A stretch of DNA of 64,000 bases from Verrucomicrobiia bacterium (GCA_035552155.1 DASZLX010000032.1:44903-108902), one strand, 5' to 3'; shown: positions 6,793-17,894, numbered from the stretch's first letter. Numbers and translations are program-made. The notes: generated by a model from the sequence alone, not told the origin.

Positions 6793-6900
6793 GGGTGGGC
6801 GTGCGTCGTCGGCGCGACGTTGGGGCAATATAGGATCGTGGGCATGATTTTTCCGCCCGCTACTGCGCGGGCGGGGACGCCGCGGCGCGGCATCCCTACC
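6793..6900. repeat. composite REP cluster copy
   Basis: Contains gcgcgacgttggggc, related to gcgcaacgtggggc of the RAYT flanks, plus ttccgcccgctactgcgcgggcggggacgccgcggcgcggcatccctacc. Confidence 0.75.
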
Positions 6901-8752: not shown

Positions 8753-9322
8753 ATGGCCAATGACGCACCAATCAACGGACCCCTCGCGGGCGGCGAGGCG
8801 GGAGCCATCGCCGAGAAGACGATGCGGGTGCAGCAGCTTTTCGTGAAGCACCAGCTCGGGTTGCGGGCGTTCATTCTGTCGTTGGAGCCGAATTTCACCG
8901 ACGCCGAGGACCTGTTGCAGGAGGTGTTTCTGGTCATTACGCGCAAGGCGAATGAGTTCGAGGAAGGCACGAATTTTTTTGGATGGGCGTGCACCATCGC
9001 GCGCTACAAATTGCTGGAATTGCTGCGGCGGCGCGCGCGGTCGCAGGCGTTGTCGGAGGAAGTCATCGAGGCCTTGTGCGTGATCGAGCCGGAACATGCT
9101 TTTGACGATTCGCGAGTGGCCATTTTGCAGCAATGCCTCGAGCAGCTCGCGCCCAAGGCGCGGCAAATGATGTATCTGCGGTATTACGGGGAGCATTCGC
9201 CGGCGCAAATCGCGCGGCTGGTGTCGTGGACGCCGAACGCGGTGCGGGTGGCCTTGTCGCGCGGGCGCACGGTTTTGCAAGAGTGCCTCGAGCGGCGTCT
9301 GCGGCAGGAGGCGTCGCGATGA
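8753..9322 (+). CDS. ECF-type RNA polymerase sigma-70 family factor
   Basis: Region 2 (DAEDLLQEVFLVITRK, FFGWACTIARYKLLE) and region 4 (MMYLRYYGEHSPAQIARLVSWTPNAVRVALSRGR). Confidence 0.85.
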   Translation: MANDAPINGPLAGGEAGAIAEKTMRVQQLFVKHQLGLRAFILSLEPNFTDAEDLLQEVFLVITRKANEFEEGTNFFGWACTIARYKLLELLRRRARSQALSEEVIEALCVIEPEHAFDDSRVAILQQCLEQLAPKARQMMYLRYYGEHSPAQIARLVSWTPNAVRVALSRGRTVLQECLERRLRQEASR

Positions 9323-11019
9323 GGGACGAGCGGCTCATTGTTTTGCTGGATGCGTACTTGGACGGCGCGTTGTCGGCGGTGGAAAAGCAGGAATTGGAAC
9401 GGATGCTATTGGAGTCCGACGCCGCGCGGCGGGAATTCTGGGAGCGCGCCTCGCTGCACGGCTGGACGTACGCGGCGGCGAAGTTGAATTACAGCGCGAA
9501 GCCGGCGGAGGAAGTGGCGCGGGAACGGCGCGGGTTGCGCGGCGTGCCTTTCGATGCGTTGGAAGCCTGGTTGAAAAGGGCGAGCCGGCTGGGATGGAAA
9601 ATGATTTTGGCGGGCGCAGCCGGCGCGGCGGCGGTGATGCTCTGGGTCGGCATCCGGGCGTTGCAGCAGCCGATGGATGACACCGCGGTGGCCGACTCGG
9701 TTCCCGGGCCGGAGCCGATGACGGAAACAAATTATATCGCGACCCTGACGCGCGGGACCGGAGTGGTGTGGGACGGCGAAAGCAATCATGTCGAAATCGG
9801 CTCGGCCCTGGCTTCGCGCTGGCTGCGCTTGAAATCGGGTGCGGTGCAAATTGAATTCAACAGCGGCGCGCGAGTGATTCTCGAGGGGCCGGCGGCGCTG
9901 GAATTAATTTCACCGGGGGCAACGCGGTTGAGTTACGGCAAGTTAAGCGCGCGGGTTCCCGAGCCGGCGCATGGTTTCAAAGTTTATACTTCGGACCTGA
10001 CGGTCACGGACCTCGGCACGGAGTTTGGGCTGAATCGGCCGGCCAACCAGCTGATGCAGGTGGAAGTATTCGAGGGGAAGGTCGAAGTGGCGATGGATGG
10101 AGCGGCCCGGACGTCCCGGATTTTGAATGCCGGTCAGGGCGTTCAGGTCAGCGCGCAACAAGTGCAGCCGATGGCGGCGGTGGACCGGCGGGAGTTTCTG
10201 GGCGTGGACGAGCTCGCGCAACGGGAGTTGGCGGAATTGCGCGCGCGCTATAAAGATTGGCGGCGGGCAGACGGCGCGTTGGACTATGATCCCGCGGTGC
10301 TCGTGCATCTGAACTTTGAAGACCAAAGCAACGTGGAGCGAAATTTGATCAATCGCGCCGTCGGGACGCCGGCGTCATCGCGCGCGATGGTTCTGGGTTG
10401 CGATTGGGGCGAAGGGCGGTGGCCGGGGAAAGGTGCGCTCGAGTTCAACGGACTCAACGACCGTGTGCGCGTCTCGGTGCCGGGCACGTTTCAATCCCTC
10501 ACCTACCTCGCGTGGTTGCGCGTGGACAGCCTGCCGAACCCGTGGAACGCGCTGGCATTGGTGGACACTTTCAAGACCGGCGAGACGCACTGGCAAATTC
10601 GCCGGAACGGCAGCGTGGAATTGGCGGTGCGGAATGGAAGCGGAAAGACGCCTTGGGATCACCTCATGAGTCCGCCGGTCATCACGCGCGAAGATTTTGG
10701 CAAATGGATTCAATTGGCGGCGGTGTTCGATGGAGGCAGCGGACAGATGATTCTCTATATGAACGGCCGGCAGGTGGCAGCGAAGACCGCGAAAATGCAG
10801 CCGCTCACGCTGGGGACTTTGGACCTTGGCAATTGGACGCTGACCGCGCCCAAGGCCAGCGCGGATTATCGCATACGGGATTTTCACGGGCGGATGGATG
10901 AATTCGCGCTGTTCAGCCGCCCGCTTTCGGCCGAAGAAATTTACCGCCAATATGAAATCGGCCAGCCGCGCGAAGCCATCGCCGTGGCGGGATTGACTCC
11001 GCTTTCCCCGAAGCCGTGA
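9319..11019 (+). CDS. anti-sigma factor with FecR-like and LamG/concanavalin-like domains
   Basis: ATGA-coupled to the sigma gene. N-terminal anti-sigma helix (LLDAYLDGALS), one TM, a FecR-like middle, and a C-terminal LamG-type segment (GRMDEFALFSRPLSAEEI). Confidence 0.75.
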   Translation: MRDERLIVLLDAYLDGALSAVEKQELERMLLESDAARREFWERASLHGWTYAAAKLNYSAKPAEEVARERRGLRGVPFDALEAWLKRASRLGWKMILAGAAGAAAVMLWVGIRALQQPMDDTAVADSVPGPEPMTETNYIATLTRGTGVVWDGESNHVEIGSALASRWLRLKSGAVQIEFNSGARVILEGPAALELISPGATRLSYGKLSARVPEPAHGFKVYTSDLTVTDLGTEFGLNRPANQLMQVEVFEGKVEVAMDGAARTSRILNAGQGVQVSAQQVQPMAAVDRREFLGVDELAQRELAELRARYKDWRRADGALDYDPAVLVHLNFEDQSNVERNLINRAVGTPASSRAMVLGCDWGEGRWPGKGALEFNGLNDRVRVSVPGTFQSLTYLAWLRVDSLPNPWNALALVDTFKTGETHWQIRRNGSVELAVRNGSGKTPWDHLMSPPVITREDFGKWIQLAAVFDGGSGQMILYMNGRQVAAKTAKMQPLTLGTLDLGNWTLTAPKASADYRIRDFHGRMDEFALFSRPLSAEEIYRQYEIGQPREAIAVAGLTPLSPKP

Positions 11020-11065
11020 GATTGCTTCGGCTGCCAAGGCGGCTCCTACTTTTTCGAATACAACC

Positions 11066-11091
11066 AGAGCCTCCTCACGTCGGCTGCTACG
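11066..11091. repeat. dispersed 26-nt repeat, family 2
   Basis: agagcctcctcacgtcggctgctacg; a copy differing at one base lies at 35055-35080. Confidence 0.8.
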
Positions 11092-11100
11092 AAATTCTAA

Positions 11101-11438
11101 AGCGGTTTAAAAAATACTGTAGCCGTTTGGTCAGAGGAATGCCGAAGCCCCGAAATCGCATGTGCGAAAACCGCCCAAGTAATCGAAATGTTGTGGCCTT
11201 AAAAAGGCTATCGCCTACCCATTTGTAGCTGGGGGCAAATGGGTAGGCGGATTTTAATTGTGATGATTCTAATGTCAAACCAAATGTCCAACGAAACATC
11301 GTGCTGAAAAAATTAAGATGCGTCCGCCCTGCGTCGTTTCGGCTCAGTCATCCCGACGGGTCGGGACTCCTTCGCCGAAGCCTCGCTAAAAACCAAAAAT
11401 CCTCGCTCCAAATCGGCTACAGTATTTTTTGAACCGCT
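11101..11438. mobile_element. MITE-like non-autonomous element with about 30-bp terminal inverted repeats
   Basis: agcggtttaaaaaatactgtagccgtttgg (11101-11130) versus the reverse complement of ccaaatcggctacagtattttttgaaccgct (11408-11438): one mismatch and one indel. No ORF inside. Internal 14-bp hairpin cgcctacccatttg/caaatgggtaggcg at 11212-11249. Confidence 0.65.
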
Positions 11439-11909
11439 CTAGAACCAAGACTTGTGGCCGTCCACGTAGGTGCGCACGAATTCGTCATCGGATTTGGCCA
11501 GGTAAAGGATGCCTTCGATGAGCCCGATGAGGTGCATGATGGGATAGAGCGCTCCGCAGGATAGCACCGTGAGCAGGAGCATGGTAATGCCCGCGCCGGT
11601 GTAACCGAGGATGAATTTGTGCACGCCAAGGCCGCCGAGGATGATGCCGCAGACACCGGCGGGAATTTTATCCGAAGCGCGGGGATTAGAGATTAGCGGC
11701 GGGACTGCCGGGGCCGGAGTGATGGGCGGCGGCGACGTTTTAATTTCGGCGGCCAATTCGGGAAAGTAAGTGAGCGGCTTCCATTCGCCCGAGCCTTCCG
11801 CCTGGACCAGGGTTTCCGCGCGCACGCGGTTTTCGGCGATCCATTGCCGCATCTGCTGGACGGTCACGGGTCCGTATGGCTGTCCGTCGGCTCCGATGAT
11901 TTTATACAT
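11439..11909 (-). CDS. GYF-like (GYF_2/DUF4339-type) N-terminal module fused to a TM2-like membrane domain
   Basis: Starts MYKIIGADGQPYGPVTVQQMRQWI...EWKPLTYFPEL, then a Pro-rich linker and GGLGVHKFILGYTGAG (TM2-like). Internal ATG chosen by analogy with the paralogs. Confidence 0.8.
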   Translation of the reverse strand: MYKIIGADGQPYGPVTVQQMRQWIAENRVRAETLVQAEGSGEWKPLTYFPELAAEIKTSPPPITPAPAVPPLISNPRASDKIPAGVCGIILGGLGVHKFILGYTGAGITMLLLTVLSCGALYPIMHLIGLIEGILYLAKSDDEFVRTYVDGHKSWF

Positions 11910-11928
11910 AACGCACCTTTCGTTGCGG

Positions 11929-11958
11929 CGCGGACGGCGCAAGCGCGCCGTCCCTACC
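11929..11958. repeat. REP-like hairpin
   Basis: ggacggcgc aagc gcgccgtcc (9-bp stem) followed by ctacc. Confidence 0.8.
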
Positions 11959-12000
11959 TACTTGCAAGTGCCAGCGTGCGGCAAATTTCGGATTTTGCCA

Positions 12001-12348
12001 TTACATTTTCGGGGGGAGATTTGTAATGCGCGGCGGGACACTGCCGGGCGGCGGCGGTTCCGGGACCTTGCCTTCCCGCAGGAGGCTGAGGCTGGTCACG
12101 AGCGACCATATCCACGCGAGCGCAAACAGCGAAGCGCCGGCCAGAAAGTATCGGGTGTAGGAGACCGCCGGCTGATCGTCCATCGGGGTATAATAATCTT
12201 TCATCAGGCCGTAATATTTTTTCATCACCAGCACGAACCACACGAGGACGAGGGTAAAGCCGGCGAGGGCGAGCACGAGTTGGCCGATGCCGGGGAGGAT
12301 TCTGCGCCCCATGAGCGAGCCGAGGCCCGGCGTTGCGAATTGGTTCAT
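12001..12348 (-). CDS. small two-TM membrane protein
   Basis: Hydrophobic segments GIGQLVLALAGFTLVLVWFVLV and FLAGASLFALAWIWSLV, with a Pro-rich tail. Start uncertain (ATG 12348, or the upstream start at 12414 overlapping the previous gene). Confidence 0.5.
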   Translation of the reverse strand: MNQFATPGLGSLMGRRILPGIGQLVLALAGFTLVLVWFVLVMKKYYGLMKDYYTPMDDQPAVSYTRYFLAGASLFALAWIWSLVTSLSLLREGKVPEPPPPGSVPPRITNLPPKM

Positions 12349-12376
12349 CAGAAAACAATTTCGCGCCGCGGCCGGG

Positions 12377-13402
12377 CTAAGCGGTTTTGCGGCCGAAGAT
12401 TTCTTCATAAGCACACATGAGGGCGACCAGGGTCAGCGGAATGGTCACCAGCAGGCCGATACAACAGGCGCAAAAGCCGGCCACATTGATGAGGCCCATC
12501 ACCACCGCCAATCCAAAAACGTGGAACCAATGCCGGTGGACCATTTTCCAACTGATTTTCATCGCGCCCCAGAAGCCGATCTTTTTGTCGATGATGAGCG
12601 GCAGGACGAACATCCAGTTCACCGAGAAATACATGGCGGGGATCATGCACAGCAGGAACACCGGCAGGGACGCGGTGAAGGCGGACATCATGTGGGTGAA
12701 GATTTCCTGCGGGTTGACAGACCCGGGATTTTGCCGGAGGGAATCCATGAGCGGCGCCATTTTGGAGGCGTTCGCCATGTTGTAGGGAAGCATGCAGGCG
12801 GAGCCGATGACGCCGGGAATCAGTTTGCCGAGATAAAGGTCCTGAAAATGGCTGAAGCCGGTGAAAAGATTGCCGGCGCTGGCCGGTTGCCCGCGAATAA
12901 TGGAAAGATAAACGTGATAAAGGCCGCCGGCCGCCGGACCCATCACCAGCGCGAGGAAAATGAAATAGACGGGCGTGAGATATTGGGTGGTCTGGTAAGG
13001 GAGCCGATTCACGCCGCCCAGGGCGAGGATGGCCTGGATGATCAGGCTGGCGCCGAAAACGAGCGCCACCAGGAGCAGGAAGGTCACCAACAAGGTCCCG
13101 ACATTGTTCTTGAACACTCCCCAGGCGCGGCTGACGCAACCGCCGATGTCGAGGGAATAATCCCGCGCCAGGATTTCCTCCGGCGAAGCCGGAGCGGCGG
13201 CTGCCGCTTCAACCCCCGTTCCCGAAATAGCACCGGGCGCCAGGCCAAATTCGGGGTACATCTCCAGCGGTTTCCACTCCTGCGAACCTTCGAGGCAGAC
13301 CGGCGTTTTTCCATTCAGGCGGCCTTCCGAGATCCACTCCCGGATTTGGTCCTCGCTGATGGGCCCGTATTCTTTTTGGTCGGCTCCGATGATTTTATAC
13401 AT
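12377..13402 (-). CDS. GYF-like module fused to a polytopic (about 6 TM, DUF975-like) membrane domain
   Basis: MYKIIGADQKEYGPISEDQIREWISEGRL...EWKPLEMYPEF, then a linker and multiple TM helices. Confidence 0.8.
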   Translation of the reverse strand: MYKIIGADQKEYGPISEDQIREWISEGRLNGKTPVCLEGSQEWKPLEMYPEFGLAPGAISGTGVEAAAAAPASPEEILARDYSLDIGGCVSRAWGVFKNNVGTLLVTFLLLVALVFGASLIIQAILALGGVNRLPYQTTQYLTPVYFIFLALVMGPAAGGLYHVYLSIIRGQPASAGNLFTGFSHFQDLYLGKLIPGVIGSACMLPYNMANASKMAPLMDSLRQNPGSVNPQEIFTHMMSAFTASLPVFLLCMIPAMYFSVNWMFVLPLIIDKKIGFWGAMKISWKMVHRHWFHVFGLAVVMGLINVAGFCACCIGLLVTIPLTLVALMCAYEEIFGRKTA

Positions 13403-13453
13403 AAGACGGTTTCTGGCGTGAAAAAAATCCGCAGTGCGGTCGCGGCGTGGGCA

Positions 13454-14107
13454 TCATTGGAACTGCGATTTGACTTCCGATTTATTCAGGACCACCAAAG
13501 CCCAGATGCCGAAGGGGATGCCCAAAATGCAACAGCAACCGGCGCAGGGTATCATCGCGACGATGGCTGCCGCGATGGCGAGCGAGCGGCTTTGCAGGCG
13601 CAACATTTTGATGGCGCCGAGGAGGACGAAGGCGTTCACCACCACGATGAGCAGGCAAACTGCGATGCCGACGGTCCCCTGCATGTTTTGCATTATGGAT
13701 CGCATTTCCGGCGGAATATTGGCGGGCAGGTTCCGTTGAAACATCGCGCCGCCGCCAATCAACATGGCCAATCCCCGGAACAGGTATAACACGACCCCCA
13801 ACGAAGCAGTGACGATGAGCGCGATGGCCGGACCTTTCACCGCCTGGAGCGCGGCATCGCGCGAACCGGGAGCGCCCGGCATGGCCATGGGGGCGGGGGC
13901 GGAGCCAGGCGGCGGCGCGCTGGTTCCGGCGGCGGCCGGGCTCAGCACGTCGGCAAATTCCGCGAATGCGGAGAGCGTCTGCCATTCACCACCGTCGCGC
14001 TGCGCCCGCGTATGCGCATTCAAACGGCCATCGATGATCCATTGGCGAATTTGTTCAGCGGCGATGGGTCCATATTCCTTTTGGTCGGCTCCAATGATTT
14101 TAAACAT
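13454..14107 (-). CDS. GYF-like module fused to a 4-TM membrane domain
   Basis: MFKIIGADQKEYGPIAAEQIRQWIIDGRL...EWQTLSAFAEF, a Pro/Ala linker, then hydrophobic helices. Confidence 0.8.
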   Translation of the reverse strand: MFKIIGADQKEYGPIAAEQIRQWIIDGRLNAHTRAQRDGGEWQTLSAFAEFADVLSPAAAGTSAPPPGSAPAPMAMPGAPGSRDAALQAVKGPAIALIVTASLGVVLYLFRGLAMLIGGGAMFQRNLPANIPPEMRSIMQNMQGTVGIAVCLLIVVVNAFVLLGAIKMLRLQSRSLAIAAAIVAMIPCAGCCCILGIPFGIWALVVLNKSEVKSQFQ

Positions 14108-14139
14108 AATATTTTTCTATGGTTGCAAGGTTGGTTTGC

Positions 14140-15006
14140 TCATGGATTCCACCGCAGGCCGGCGAGCCGGTCGGAGGTCAATTGTTGAACACTGCCATCG
14201 GCGAAGGCCACGACGCACAAGCGGCCATGGCGCGATTTTGGAAGCATCAACTCCGGGCCGCCACTGGTGTTCCAGCCGTCTTCGGTTTCAAAAAGGAGAA
14301 CCGTATTGGGAGCGATGTTTTTTTCTTCGATGCCATCGAGTTGGGAATTAAAAGCATAGTCGCACCGGTCGGTGGGACCTGCGGCGGGACATTTGAAAAC
14401 CCTTTCAGAAGGAGCATACGATTTGATGGAATCACACCACGTTTTCGCGGGCGGCAAATGGTCTCCATGGTCCCCGGAATAAATGCGCACCGCCAGCGCC
14501 AATTGTTTCATGTTATTGACGCATTGAATCGTTTGCGCGCGCTGTTTGGCTTTGGACAGGGCCGGCAAAAGCATTGCCCCCTCGAGAGGAATCATCAGGA
14601 GCAACACGGCGGACACGATGGTTCCCGCCAGTGCGATGCCAAAACCACTGAGAGCGCCGTTGCTTTTTTTCACCCGGTTTATCGCGATGATACCGAGGAT
14701 TAACCCGATCACCGCGCCGATGCCGCACGTGAACAATCCCAGGACACCTGAAATGAGTGAGCCAATGGCCAGGCCGCTGGTTCTGGACGGTGGAGGGGGG
14801 GCGGAGGGTGCGGGGGAAACCATCGGCGGAACGCGGTGCGCAAAGGCCGCGGTAAATTCCGGGAATTCGCTTAGCGGCTTCCAATCGCCGCCGTCAGCCT
14901 GCGTCCTGGTTTGGAAGTTGACGCGACCTTGCGCAATCCATTGATTCATCTGGTCTGCCGAAACCGGGCCGTACTCCTTCTGGTCCGCTCCGATGATTTT
15001 ATACAT
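14140..15006 (-). CDS. GYF-like module + DUF4190-like TM pair + pseudopilin-like (DUF1559-type, H-X9-DG) ectodomain
   Basis: MYKIIGADQKEYGPVSADQMNQWI.... SGLAIGSLISGVLGLFTCGIG...INRVKKSNG is DUF4190-like. LLPALSKAKQRAQTIQCVNNMKQLALA and HGRLCVVAFADG give the H-X9-DG motif. An alternative start lies 9 nt upstream at 15015. Confidence 0.8.
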   Translation of the reverse strand: MYKIIGADQKEYGPVSADQMNQWIAQGRVNFQTRTQADGGDWKPLSEFPEFTAAFAHRVPPMVSPAPSAPPPPSRTSGLAIGSLISGVLGLFTCGIGAVIGLILGIIAINRVKKSNGALSGFGIALAGTIVSAVLLLMIPLEGAMLLPALSKAKQRAQTIQCVNNMKQLALAVRIYSGDHGDHLPPAKTWCDSIKSYAPSERVFKCPAAGPTDRCDYAFNSQLDGIEEKNIAPNTVLLFETEDGWNTSGGPELMLPKSRHGRLCVVAFADGSVQQLTSDRLAGLRWNP

Positions 15007-15081
15007 AGGCGTCATCCTTGGACATGTTTTCCAACGCTCCCACTGTGGAGCTTTTACCCAATTGTCCCTGACAAAGCAAGG

Positions 15082-15549
15082 TCAGGCCGCGAACCATTGA
15101 AAAATCGGGAACGGTAAATTCCGCAGAAGGCCGAACAAAATCCAAGCGGCGAGATAGCACCACAGCCAGCGGGCATTCAGAGGCAGAGAGCCGCCGCGCA
15201 TGGTGAGCCACATCCAGCGCAGACCGAACCACGCGGCAAGTGGCAGCGAAAGGACGAACATCGCGTTCAGTTGGAAAGCCGCGATGAGGTTCCCGTGCAA
15301 CAATTGATGCAGGGCACGCTGTGCGCCGCAGCCGGGGCAGTCCAACCCGGTTATTTGATGAAACATGCAGGGGGGGAAAATAGCGACCTGCGTGGGATCA
15401 AAGGCGAAGTAAATCAGGGCGCCGGTGGCGCATAAAAGGCAAACGCCCGCCAGCAGCAACGCCCTGGCGCTGGGAAATCCGACCCGCGTGAGGTTAGAGC
15501 CGGTAAACATGATGTATCGGATGGCCCAAAGCGGCGGACGCAAAGACAA
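15082..15549 (-). CDS. DUF2752-like membrane protein
   Basis: Motif GLDCPGCGAQRALHQLLHG plus four hydrophobic helices. The 5' end overlaps the upstream gene, so the start is uncertain (15549 or 15510). Confidence 0.7.
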   Translation of the reverse strand: MSLRPPLWAIRYIMFTGSNLTRVGFPSARALLLAGVCLLCATGALIYFAFDPTQVAIFPPCMFHQITGLDCPGCGAQRALHQLLHGNLIAAFQLNAMFVLSLPLAAWFGLRWMWLTMRGGSLPLNARWLWCYLAAWILFGLLRNLPFPIFQWFAA

Positions 15550-15988
15550 CAGCTAATATGATTACTATCAGGGCGAGGCTCATCAGGGAAAGCACCAACC
15601 CGGCGATGGCCATGCCTTTGCCGTCATATCGATTCGGGTTGCTTTTAATTTGAGACAGGGCGACGAGCGACAAAATCAGGCCGGTGATGTTGAACGGCAG
15701 TCCGTAACAACAACACAAGCCGAAGGTCAGGGAAAAAATTCCCAGGATCAGGCTGGTGAGGGCGAGAGCGGAGCTTTTGTAAGCGGCCGGCGCTGCGGCA
15801 GTGGAAGGGGCTGTCGCTGCGAACAAGAGGGAGAATTCCGGCAGCGCACTGAGGTTTTTCCATTCGGTTGCGCCCTGCGCGAGCGTGGGCGTGGCGGCAT
15901 TGGCGCGGCCTTCGGTGATCCATTGGCGCAATTGGTCGGCGGAAATGGGGCCGTACTCCTTTCCATCGGCTCCGATGACTCTATACAT
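15494..15988 (-). CDS. GYF-like module fused to a DUF4190-like membrane domain
   Basis: MYRVIGADGKEYGPISADQLRQWITEGR...EWKNLSALPEF, then LALTSLILGIFSLTFGLCCC...SQIKSNPNRYDGKG. Confidence 0.8.
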   Translation of the reverse strand: MYRVIGADGKEYGPISADQLRQWITEGRANAATPTLAQGATEWKNLSALPEFSLLFAATAPSTAAAPAAYKSSALALTSLILGIFSLTFGLCCCYGLPFNITGLILSLVALSQIKSNPNRYDGKGMAIAGLVLSLMSLALIVIILAVVFASAALGHPIHHVYRL

Positions 15989-16031
15989 GAATGGACTCTG
16001 GTTAATTCTCTGGCTGGCGTCAAGTGCGACA

Positions 16032-16162
16032 GTAGGGACGGCGCGCTGGCGCCGTCAGCGCCGCGTTCAGCGGCGCAACGTGGGGCGTGGCTGGAGTCGT
16101 GGGTTTGAGTTGTTCCGCCCGCTACTGCGCGGGTAGGGACGCCGTGGCACGGCGTCCCTACC
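16032..16162. repeat. composite REP cluster, left flank of the RAYT gene
   Basis: tagggacggcgcgctggcgccgtc, gcgccgcgttcagcggcgc, aacgtggggcg, a spacer, ccgcccgctactgcgcgggt, then the perfect palindrome ggtagggacgccgtggcacggcgtccctacc. Confidence 0.9.
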
Positions 16163-16215
16163 AATCTTCTTCGCTGCGCTTGCTGAATTTGATTTTGTCG
16201 TCTTAACTGCCCTCA

Positions 16216-16689
16216 ATGGAAATTCCACAGCGCAAAAGGTTGCCTCATGAGGTGCCGTCGTGGGTGGACCCGCAAAAGGAAATTTATTTCATCACCATCA
16301 ACTGCAAAAAGCGTTTTCAAAATCAGCTCACCTTGCCAGGCATAGCCGAACAACTATTCGAAACGGTTCGTCATCGGCAGGAAGGATTTTTGTGGTGGCC
16401 TTATTTATTTTTGCTGATGCCTGACCATTTGCACGCCCTTCTTTCGTTTCCTCCGTCCGGAAAGCCGCTAAAACAGATCGTTTCCAAATGGAAGGAATGG
16501 ACGGCCAAGGAAATTAAAATAGCTTGGCAACGCGATTTTTTTGAGCATCGGTTGCGGCGGGAAGAAAGCCGCCGGGAAAAAGCCGACTATATTTTACAAA
16601 ATCCGGTTCGCGCAAAATTAATCGCACGGCCGGAAGAATGGCCGTTCATCTATTTTGGGGATGGCCAACGCCCGCAATTCGACTGGTAG
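16216..16689 (+). CDS. REP-associated tyrosine transposase (RAYT; IS200/IS605 TnpA-like Y1 HUH enzyme)
   Basis: HUH motif PDHLHALLSF and catalytic-Tyr motif ADYILQNPVRAKL. 157 aa. Flanked on both sides by the same REP cluster. Confidence 0.85.
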   Translation: MEIPQRKRLPHEVPSWVDPQKEIYFITINCKKRFQNQLTLPGIAEQLFETVRHRQEGFLWWPYLFLLMPDHLHALLSFPPSGKPLKQIVSKWKEWTAKEIKIAWQRDFFEHRLRREESRREKADYILQNPVRAKLIARPEEWPFIYFGDGQRPQFDW

Positions 16690-16815
16690 GGATGGCGCGC
16701 CTGCGCCGTCAGCGCCGCGTTCAGCGGCGCAACGTGGGGCGTAATTCACGCGATCGGCTCGCGGATTCCGCCCGCTACTGCGCGGGCGGGGACGCCGTGG
16801 CACGGCGTCCCTACC
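16685..16815. repeat. composite REP cluster, right flank of the RAYT gene (direct copy of 16032-16162)
   Basis: ggtagggatggcgcgcctgcgccgtcagcgccgcgttcagcggcgcaacgtggggcg ... ttccgcccgctactgcgcgggcggggacgccgtggcacggcgtccctacc. It begins on the RAYT stop codon. Confidence 0.9.
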
Positions 16816-16838
16816 ACCTCACGGCTGTCGAAGGCGGA

Positions 16839-17894
16839 TTACTCGGCCAACTCCTTCAGCTTTCTCGCGGCTTTGCCGCCGTCGATTAGTTCGACGGCGA
16901 GGTCCCATCCTTCGCCCAGGGTGCGTGCGCGATTGGCCACGAACAGGCCGGCAGCGGCGTTTAACAACACGGCGTCGCGTTTCGGGCCGCGATCCTCGCC
17001 GCGCAAAATTCGGCGGATAATTTCGGCGTTGACCTCCCGGGTTCCACCCGCGAGATCGGCCAGCGTTGCTGGTTGTAGCGGAAAATGACCGGCGTCGAGG
17101 ACTGAAGTGGTGAAGCCGCGTTCCTGGTAAAACTCCGCGACGGCATTTTCACCCAGGGTCGAGAGTTCATCCAGATAGCGGACGGTATCCGGAGGACTGT
17201 GGACTTTCCCCGAGACCACCATCCCACGCCGCGCGCCGAGCGATTGCAACACGTGCGCGAGCGGTTCGCACAATTCCGGGCGAGGCACTCCGACCAGTTG
17301 CGCGCCGGGATGCGCGGGGTTTAAGAGCGGGCCGAGAAAATTGAAGATGGTTCGCCGGCCGCGGTCGGCGCAGAGTTTGCGCGCGGGGCCGATGTGCCGG
17401 AAAGCCGGGTGGTAGCTCGGCGCGAAAAAAAATGCGAAATATCGCTCGCGCAATGAATGCGCGGCTTCGTCCGGCGTCAAATCGATTTTGATCCCGAGCG
17501 CTTCGAGCACGTCCGCGCTGCCCGCCTGCGAGGTGACGGCGCGGTTGCCGTGTTTGGCGACCGGCACACCCGCCGCGGCGCAAATGATGGCGACGGTTGT
17601 GGAAATGTTGAACGTGTTGAGGCGGTCGCCGCCGGTGCCGCACACGTCCAGGATTTCGTGCGTGTTGCGCCAGGCGGGATCGAGCGGCGGCGCGATGGAT
17701 TTTTCGCGCAACGCGCGAGCGAACGCGGCAATTTCTCCGACGGTCTCGCCTTTGAGCGCGAGATGGCAAAGAAAGTCCGCTTTCAATGTGGCGGGAACTT
17801 TTTCGTCGATGATTTGTTCGACGGCCAGGCGCGCCTGGTCATCAGAAAGATGTCGCGCAGCGGCAAGTTCAACGATTAGAGTATCCAGCGTCAT
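16839..17894 (-). CDS. trpD: anthranilate phosphoribosyltransferase
   Basis: GTGGDRLNTFNISTT, KHGNRAVTSQAGSADVLEALG, and overall TrpD layout. Confidence 0.95.
   Translation of the reverse strand: MTLDTLIVELAAARHLSDDQARLAVEQIIDEKVPATLKADFLCHLALKGETVGEIAAFARALREKSIAPPLDPAWRNTHEILDVCGTGGDRLNTFNISTTVAIICAAAGVPVAKHGNRAVTSQAGSADVLEALGIKIDLTPDEAAHSLRERYFAFFFAPSYHPAFRHIGPARKLCADRGRRTIFNFLGPLLNPAHPGAQLVGVPRPELCEPLAHVLQSLGARRGMVVSGKVHSPPDTVRYLDELSTLGENAVAEFYQERGFTTSVLDAGHFPLQPATLADLAGGTREVNAEIIRRILRGEDRGPKRDAVLLNAAAGLFVANRARTLGEGWDLAVELIDGGKAARKLKELAE

Follow-up and report, generated by a model that had tools for sequence, protein, structure and literature searches.

Within a stretch of 64,000 nucleotides (nt) from a Verrucomicrobiia bacterium (GCA_035552155.1, DASZLX010000032.1:44903-108902), referred to here in its full length as the window, seven genes lie side by side on the minus strand between positions 11439 and 15988, and are designated g7 to g1 from the first gene of the array to the last (Table 1). 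A first-pass annotation of this DNA had described five of them as opening with one and the same module of about 55 residues, and all of the corresponding open reading frames (ORFs) were found in the ORF listing of the window. The two genes said to be interleaved among them, one for a protein with two transmembrane (2-TM) segments (g2) and one for a DUF2752 protein (g6), are both present, with their starts revised: g2 begins at 12408 instead of 12348, and g6 at 15510, with 15549 as an alternative TTG start. Gene starts follow the gene calls on a soil-metagenome contig of the Joint Genome Institute (JGI) that is identical over the array stretch, and two of the array proteins are also found in NCBI under a metagenome-assembled genome (MAG) labelled 'Verrucomicrobiae bacterium'.

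Table 1. Genes of the array and adjoining features, in window positions (first to last gene, then flanking elements).
Feature	Position	Strand	Description
g7	15494..15988	-	GYF_2 module (15824-15988), Ala/Pro linker, DUF4190 with three predicted TM helices; first gene of the array
g6	15082..15510	-	DUF2752 membrane protein with CPGCG motif; alternative TTG start at 15549
g5	14140..15006	-	GYF_2 module (14842-15006), Pro-rich linker with VPPMV (14818-14832), DUF4190, pseudopilin-like DUF1559 ectodomain, H-X9-DG at 14194-14229
g4	13454..14107	-	GYF_2-like module (13943-14107), Pro/Ala linker, ~4-TM body without family, Cys-rich hairpin end (GCCCILGIPFG)
g3	12377..13402	-	GYF_2 module (13238-13402), linker, multi-TM GPDPase_memb/DUF975-like body; conserved core gene
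g2	12001..12408	-	2-TM partner without Pfam family; C-terminal tail with VPPRI...PPKM (12004-12039)
g1	11439..11909	-	GYF_2 module (11745-11909), linker with conserved SPPPI (11724-11738), TM2 domain; last gene of the array
Candidate terminator	11211..11250	.	Hairpin with 14-bp stem followed by minus-strand TTTTT, ~190 nt past the g1 stop; pattern match only
Upstream intergenic region	15989..16215	-	Expected place of the promoter; one copy of a repetitive extragenic palindrome (REP)-like repeat, 16032-16163

By sequence profile and predicted structure, the module shared by g1, g3, g4, g5 and g7 is a genuine bacterial-type GYF domain. Against the Pfam family GYF_2 (PF14237, formerly DUF4339; gathering threshold 25.8 bits), g1, g3, g5 and g7 score 44.9, 36.8, 29.7 and 35.1 bits, respectively, all above the threshold, and g4 scores 24.7 bits, slightly below it, yet has all 17 positions that are invariant in the five modules (M1, I5, G6, A7, D8, Y12, G13, P14, Q19, W23, I24, R28, T33, G39, W43, L46 and E51); the profile searches that had been proposed as a check therefore agree with the original assignment to GYF_2. 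The Pfam match covers the first ~52 residues of a 55-residue module, which stands at residue 1 in all five proteins, and also in most of the best 150 hits in a representative library of 1.84 billion proteins, where this GYF subtype amounts to 3313 clusters at 50% identity. Pairwise identity to the g3 module is 53-60%, and a profile built from the five modules finds exactly five matches in the 64-kb window, all of them inside the array.

The fold was assessed with AlphaFold2 (AF2). In the model of g7, built from 35 aligned sequences, residues 1-58 have a pLDDT score (predicted local distance difference test) of 93-95 and the order beta-beta-alpha-beta-beta-alpha, followed by a low-confidence linker and long helices at 74-89, 96-116 and 124-154; the GYF part of g1 was modelled with a pLDDT of about 80, and the GYF modules of g7 and g1 have strands at 2-5, 11-15, 34-37 and 43-45 and helices at 17-25 and 50-58. 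Foldseek comparison with the PDB returned named GYF domains for all of the top 9 matches (Smy2 3fma/3k3v, GltJ 7z3c and GIGYF1/2), with CD2BP2 at ranks 11-12; the probabilities of the GYF matches are 0.99-1.0, but the small size of the domain (55 residues) keeps their E-values weak (0.02-0.5). When PDB sequences were searched with a profile, first place went to the GYF domain of Myxococcus GltJ ('AgmX') (E = 0.0075), followed by CD2BP2, whose match runs through a shared YGP[FI]..Q[MI]..W[VI].EG stretch. The triad at the GYF position reads G-R-[LVA], with Arg28 invariant, and the eukaryotic GYF family PF02213 gives 15-17 bits against a threshold of 25.7. By Pfam, the best-scoring library matches have two or three GYF_2 modules in a chain, and the library search itself matched as many as four stretches; these chains (P0361-P0370, P0421 and P0479), whose bodies are DUF975, DUF4190, GPDPase_memb or DUF5362, have the look of the multi-gene array in single-chain form and, having the same types of membrane body, would fit multivalent binding.

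Each module had been described as joined to a different membrane part, which is a slight overstatement: the TM2, 4-TM and GPDPase_memb bodies do differ, but two proteins share DUF4190. The Pfam scan agrees with the earlier description of g1 (TM2, PF05154, 35.5 bits vs threshold 27.9), of g5 (DUF4190, PF13828, 41.4 vs 35, and SBP_bac_10/DUF1559, PF07596, 36.7 vs 23.3) and of g7 (DUF4190, 53.5 vs 35), and it assigns g6, which is without a GYF module, to DUF2752 (PF10825, 71.3 vs 27). The body of g4 and the 2-TM protein g2 match no Pfam family. For g3, the label DUF975-like holds for relatives more than for the protein itself, which matches GPDPase_memb (PF10110, 34.2 bits vs threshold 29.6) and was left unmatched by DUF975 (PF06161) in the Pfam scan; PF06161 is precomputed for a few g3 homologues, and the tandem-GYF relative P0361 reaches 31.5 bits for DUF975, below the cut-off of 34.8. 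A total of 519 full-length-type homologues of g3 were found. In g5, an H-X9-DG motif was read from the translation at residues 260-271 (HGRLCVVAFADG), an end that fits the DUF1559-type pseudopilin-like proteins. NCBIfam models gave nothing above their cut-offs for the seven proteins, the only notable match being a sub-threshold one of g7 to 'CCC motif membrane protein'.

Comparison of the membrane parts with hhalign indicated that the DUF4190-containing pair (g5 and g7) is clearly related and that the others are essentially unrelated, with a weak similarity of the last hairpin of g4 to DUF4190 (51.6% probability). A common origin of the membrane parts was considered and set aside: where TM2 or the 4-TM body resembles DUF4190, the similar stretch is short, and the resemblance may stem from the composition of TM segments. 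Proteins in which GYF_2 is fused to DUF4190, TM2 or GPDPase_memb are frequent in public data. Cysteine clusters lie within predicted TM hairpins of g3 (FCACCIGLL), g4 (GCCCILGIPFG) and g7 (LCCCYGLPF); these, together with the CPGCG motif of g6, may point to acylation or to metal/redox chemistry.

From g7 to g1 the genes are spaced by -17, 75, 32, 51, -32 and 91 nt, the negative values being overlaps of 17 nt between g7 and g6 and of 32 nt between g3 and g2. Transcription of the seven genes as a single unit, already suggested in the first-pass annotation, is plausible given the short or overlapping gaps, a one-strand order that is kept across dozens of species despite changing flanks, and the hairpin and T-run after the last gene; in addition, the overlap within the pair g3 and g2 suggests translational coupling. 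No sigma-70-like match was found upstream of g7 in a consensus scan, and the host may use other promoter types. An E-value scan of positions 10800-17000 against Rfam returned no match. An anti-phage defence system was considered as well and is without support, as the PADLOC defence-system models matched none of the seven proteins at E <= 0.01. A near-consensus sigma-70-like sequence (TTGACA-16-TAAAAT, 11/12 matches) was found on the minus strand at 11211-11278, directly upstream of the post-array hairpin and T-run, and could mark a very short hairpin transcript or be a chance match.

Conservation was surveyed from g3 outwards, taking one genome per species (80 loci, mostly labelled Verrucomicrobiota) and annotating them with profiles from the window proteins; presence counts refer to the 47 loci with enough flanking DNA. 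A 2-TM gene directly follows the g3-type anchor in 47/47 loci, usually overlapping it by 32-47 nt. Around this pair, the GYF-TM2 gene is present in 25 of the 47 loci, GYF-DUF4190-pseudopilin in 19, DUF2752 in 15, GYF-4TM in 14 and GYF-DUF4190 in 9; clusters with at least two GYF genes account for 35 loci and those with at least three for 22, all five occur together in 3, and the core pair stands alone in 12, the number of GYF genes per cluster varying from 1 to 5. The unit is thus a fixed core, consisting of a GYF membrane protein and its 2-TM partner, plus a variable set of GYF paralogues, and related genomes do keep these genes together, contrary to the scattering that had been named at the outset as a refutation. 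In the relative L003 (51% identity at g3, on a 5.9-Mb chromosome) the same seven genes occur in the same order, plus one extra ORF.

Cluster members share one strand in the surveyed loci, and the DUF2752 gene comes directly after GYF-DUF4190 in most related loci having the latter, although this pair may also sit apart, 7 kb from the core. The gene immediately upstream varies, being dprA on the same strand in 21/66 species loci (L004, L006 and L007 among them) and trpD in 8/66, and since it differs between lineages, it is the cluster and not the wider neighbourhood that constitutes the conserved unit. Metagenome contigs anchored on GYF-TM2, and therefore independent of g3, agree: in 30 of the 32 contigs with at least 2 kb upstream, at least one further GYF paralogue is adjacent, and a variant core composed of GYF-4TM, 2-TM and GYF-TM2 occurs in this set. 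Judged from these genome comparisons, the array is a conserved, predicted operon of Verrucomicrobiota (Limisphaerales / subdivision-3 type). A typical cluster was also seen in several loci from MAGs labelled as other phyla (L015, L018, L019, L022, L040, L043, L048, L069 and L087), with labels that include Methylomirabilota, Acidoferrum, Sulfotelmatobacter, Limnocylindrales and Aquilonibacter; the arrangement and spacing of L015 equal those of L007/L008, whose anchor protein is labelled 'Methyl...' in NCBI too, and these loci look like mis-binned contigs rather than horizontal transfer.

GYF modules of paralogues within a genome are 58% identical and those of orthologues across genomes 57-66%, and in 57-92% of cases, according to class, a module's nearest GYF neighbour in another genome is of its own class. 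The similar identity within and across genomes, combined with nearest neighbours that are usually of the same class, indicates that the duplications are old and that the GYF core is under common constraint; its equal conservation fits a shared ligand class. These data bear on another account of the array, namely tandem duplication and domain shuffling that left independent or redundant small membrane proteins, co-localised through ancestry and shared regulation and forming no physical complex. The variable membership, the clusters reduced to the core pair, the distance at which the GYF-DUF4190 and DUF2752 pair can lie from the core, and the mostly unrelated membrane parts would all be in line with it; however, adjacency is still kept in spite of the age of the duplications, order and strand persist while the flanks change, and the overlapping gene pairs suggest coupled synthesis, and we regard this account as improbable. 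An assembly of the encoded proteins is the interpretation that we pursue below, starting with their likely topology.

The GYF modules start at residue 1 without a signal peptide, and a flexible Pro/Ala-rich tether of about 20-45 residues leads to the first TM helix; from these features, and by analogy with GltJ, the modules probably face the cytoplasm. With its N-terminus inside and three hydrophobic passes after it, g5 would have its pseudopilin-like domain in the periplasm, where domains of this type are expected. The orientation of the 2-TM partner is left ambiguous by charge counts, and it is gene fusions that decide it: the C-terminus of this protein runs on into a Pterin_4a (PCD/DCoH-like) domain in some two dozen species, giving a protein of 216-220 residues, and into another hydrophobic segment and then a Trypsin_2 protease domain in two species (fused examples are L004:10998-11654, L052:10911-12239 and about 24 further loci). 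Both types of fusion place the 2-TM tail in the cytoplasm, and thus on the side of the membrane where the GYF modules are predicted to be. It is unusual in itself for a pterin-4a-carbinolamine-dehydratase-like domain to be anchored in a membrane; where the 2-TM gene is fused, GYF-TM2 is mostly absent (present in 3/19).

Proline motifs were sought in the linkers, which are Pro/Ala-rich (18-26% Pro; 10% in the g3 class), and in the 2-TM tails, and their enrichment was assessed by comparing observed counts with shuffles of the same sequences. In a first set of 53 distinct short tails, PP[RK][ILMV] occurs in 25 (expected 1.2 +- 1.0), usually three residues or fewer from the C-terminus; in the TM2-anchored set it occurs in 38 of 49 tails (expected 1.3 +- 1.1), where the consensus is [VI]PPR[LMI]xDLPGxPPKL and the motif is often doubled. 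Tail residues outside the motif vary freely, and the motif persists. The broader form PPx[ILMV] was found in 32/36 GYF-TM2 linkers (expected 6.2), in 14/24 linkers of the pseudopilin class (expected 3.8) and in 25/86 of the g3, or GPDPase_memb, class (expected 5.6). In GYF-TM2 linkers the first PP begins about 5-6 residues past the GYF domain, and P60 and P61 are at least 90% conserved among 42 homologues of g1. Within the array, the candidate ligand peptides are the g2 tail REGKVPEPPPPGSVPPRITNLPPKM, the g1 linker TSPPPITPAPAVPPLISNPRAS and the g5 linker HRVPPMVSPAPSAPPPPS, and further peptide forms of the candidate motifs are SVPPRITNLPPKM and TSPPPITPAPAVPPLIS. We infer that the 2-TM tail is the best ligand candidate, with PPx[ILMV] or PP[RK][ILMV] as the motif, and not PPG. 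The conserved and often doubled PP[RK][ILMV] motif in the putatively cytoplasmic tail of the 2-TM partner is what appears to be new here.

Taken together, these features make it plausible that recognition between GYF domains and proline motifs assembles a membrane complex, as had been suggested for the linkers in the first-pass annotation, and sharpen this idea toward the 2-TM tail. The core would consist of the GYF-GPDPase_memb/DUF975-like protein and the 2-TM partner encoded by the overlapping gene, and accessory paralogues would bring the same N-terminal GYF module on TM2, DUF4190-pseudopilin, 4-TM and DUF4190 bodies, the last one followed by the DUF2752 gene. The cytoplasm-facing modules would read proline motifs as the GYF domain of GltJ does, the likeliest ligand being the often doubled [VI]PP[RK][ILM]...PPK[LM] at the C-terminus of the 2-TM partner, with PPx[ILMV] in the linkers of the TM2, pseudopilin and GPDPase_memb paralogues as further ligands. 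Multivalent contacts of this kind might cluster the membrane modules into a hetero-oligomeric inner-membrane platform that would include the periplasm-facing pseudopilin-like domain, and its role could be envelope-to-cytoplasm coupling, a proposal made for the class of bacterial membrane GYF proteins. On sequence and analogy, we adopt assembly of a membrane complex from this conserved operon through GYF-proline contacts as a tentative reading, to which we give somewhat short of an even chance.

Several observations weigh against this reading. The triad is G-R-[LVA] instead of G-Y-F, so the specificity of eukaryotic GYF domains is not transferable, and the eukaryotic ligand motif PPG is enriched neither in any linker class nor in the tails by the shuffle test. 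The linkers of the DUF4190-alone class show no motif enrichment, in the 4-TM class the enrichment is weak and depends on the regular expression used, and a minority of the 2-TM tails is without the motif. The sequences compared are related and do not represent independent events, so that the shuffle statistics overstate independence, and the presence of the tail motif does not track that of GYF-TM2 beyond phylogeny. Besides, Pro/Ala-rich tethers are common flexible spacers, and in the AF2 models of full-length g7 and g1 the protein's own linker is not docked on the GYF domain, a low-confidence result that is uninformative for binding in trans.

A further reading is that the module reads no proline motifs at all, and might bind anionic lipid head groups or nucleic acid via the invariant Arg28 and Asp8, or target the membrane. 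The Tyr of the triad is replaced by the invariant Arg, and the GYF domain of GltJ fails to bind the classical CD2 peptide and works through a non-canonical face (Attia et al. 2024; PMC11135422); nevertheless, according to the same article, this domain, which is the nearest relative with a solved structure, does bind a proline-rich sequence, and enriched proline motifs lie in the very operon studied here, which makes a proline-independent function very improbable.

A different question is where the ligand is encoded. The five modules could each recruit one external cytoplasmic proline-rich protein encoded elsewhere, in parallel to GltJ recruiting AglZ, with the linkers as mere spacers. That the ligand is a separate cytoplasmic protein in the sole characterised case (PMC11135422), that the GYF cores are equally conserved across the five classes, as would fit one common ligand, that AF2 docked no linker, and that the DUF4190-alone linkers have no enriched motif are all compatible with this possibility. 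It leaves unexplained, however, the C-terminal PP[RK][ILMV] of an obligatory 2-TM partner and the PPx[ILMV] of the TM2 class, fixed ~6 residues past the GYF domain, and no conserved soluble proline-rich candidate was seen beside the cluster, where the checked upstream neighbours vary; we consider an external ligand unlikely, though well worth keeping in mind. The more specific form of the GYF-proline assembly, a self-contained network of readers and motifs in which five GYF readers and at least three operon-encoded ligand motifs, with the 2-TM tail as hub, build a dedicated heteromeric inner-membrane complex, is likewise doubtful on present evidence. If true, bacteria would have an equivalent of the proline-motif scaffolds of eukaryotes, and a ligand code would be available for the first time for bacterial GYF domains other than that of Myxococcus.

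Regarding the surroundings of the array, an extracytoplasmic function (ECF) sigma factor gene and a FecR + Laminin_G_3 anti-sigma-like gene form a pair at 8753-11019, convergent to the array end, and the same pair occupies the same position in L003. On the other side, a REP-associated tyrosine transposase gene lies on the plus strand at 16216-16689 (NCBIfam NF047646, 93.4 bits vs cut-off 80), flanked on both sides by a bipartite repeat of ~130 nt in direct orientation, with copies 95-96% identical (16032-16088 + 16113-16163 and 16686-16742 + 16766-16816), each with a GGGACGCCGTGGCACGGCGTCCC hairpin; diverged copies of this hairpin were found at 6874 and 18066. This element lies between trpD and the array; L003 does not have it, and there trpD stands directly before the array. 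The adjacency of dprA in other loci and the pseudopilin-like ectodomain of one paralogue make a link to DNA uptake conceivable.

Bacterial GYF domains are widespread, yet to our knowledge a ligand has been established for one of them only, that of GltJ, and we know of no established function in bacteria for TM2, DUF4190, DUF2752, GPDPase_memb/DUF975 or SBP_bac_10. The array offers a compact case, with candidate short ligand motifs encoded beside their readers, that could define a bacterial GYF recognition code, and could give a first functional handle on DUF4190, DUF2752, TM2 and DUF975/GPDPase_memb, all of them very common; should the motifs turn out to have no such role, what is left would be an ordinary conserved operon of uncharacterised membrane proteins. 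Our literature search on the function of GYF_2/DUF4339, DUF4190 and DUF2752 found almost nothing besides Attia et al. (2024).

Eukaryotic GYF domains (CD2BP2, Smy2 and GIGYF1/2; PF02213) have the same fold as the array modules and share with them the core signature YGP[FIV]..xQ[MI]..W[VI].EG. Their ligand in the CD2 tail is reported to be a tandem repeat, and the motif of the 2-TM tail is often doubled too. In contrast, eukaryotic GYF domains belong to splicing or translation factors and those of the array to membrane proteins, and the eukaryotic ligand PPG is not enriched in the linkers or tails of the array. A genomic parallel comes from the Akkermansia-like gut fosmid SMG 25 (stlA locus; PMC3861447), where a DUF4339 (= GYF_2) gene adjoins a TM2 gene, so that, as in the array, GYF_2 and TM2 occur together in a verrucomicrobial context; the region around them is, however, a putative prophage that carries DnaJ-zinc-finger and ankyrin genes and has no paralogue array, and the salt-tolerance phenotype of SMG 25 was mapped to another gene than the DUF4339/TM2 pair (PMC3861447).

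The best characterised counterpart is GltJ (AgmX) of the Agl-Glt gliding machinery of Myxococcus xanthus, whose GYF structure (PDB 7z3c) was described by Attia et al. (2024; PMC11135422). According to that article, the GltJ GYF domain binds a proline-rich sequence of AglZ with micromolar affinity, through a beta-sheet face whose residues are the most conserved among prokaryotic GYF domains, and the G, Y and F residues are said to be missing in nearly all bacterial GYF domains. Bacterial GYF proteins are described there as having mostly an N-terminal GYF domain ahead of a membrane-associated module, as being over-represented in Planctomycetes-Verrucomicrobia, among other groups, and as being often encoded in conserved operons with transmembrane proteins. 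Because of this work, the first-pass annotation is outdated in calling the domain one without assigned function and in stating that no system of this organisation is described.

The array has the layout of these membrane adaptors: an N-terminal GYF domain, a membrane module and a conserved operon with a TM partner. GltJ and the array both have a bacterial-type GYF domain without the G-Y-F triad, the GltJ domain scoring best by sequence among solved structures and standing in the top group by fold, and in both a cytoplasmic GYF domain would be held on a disordered tether to a TM protein with an extracytoplasmic part, an arrangement that is predicted on the side of the array. The two differ in several respects. 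GltJ is built as ZnR-linker-GYF, whereas no zinc-ribbon Pfam match was found in the seven proteins; no genes for the GltJ partners Agl/Glt, MglA and AglZ lie near the array, nor is there a motility gene among the Pfam-assigned neighbours; the array has five GYF paralogues in one operon, and GltJ has one; and the membrane parts of the array are small DUF modules, compared with the TonB-C-like periplasmic domain of GltJ. Finally, the candidate ligands of the array are short motifs encoded in the same operon, unlike that of GltJ. The array belongs to the class of bacterial membrane-tethered GYF adaptors described by Attia et al. (2024), of which it is a distinct variant without zinc ribbon, with up to five paralogues per operon and with conserved proline motifs encoded by the operon itself.

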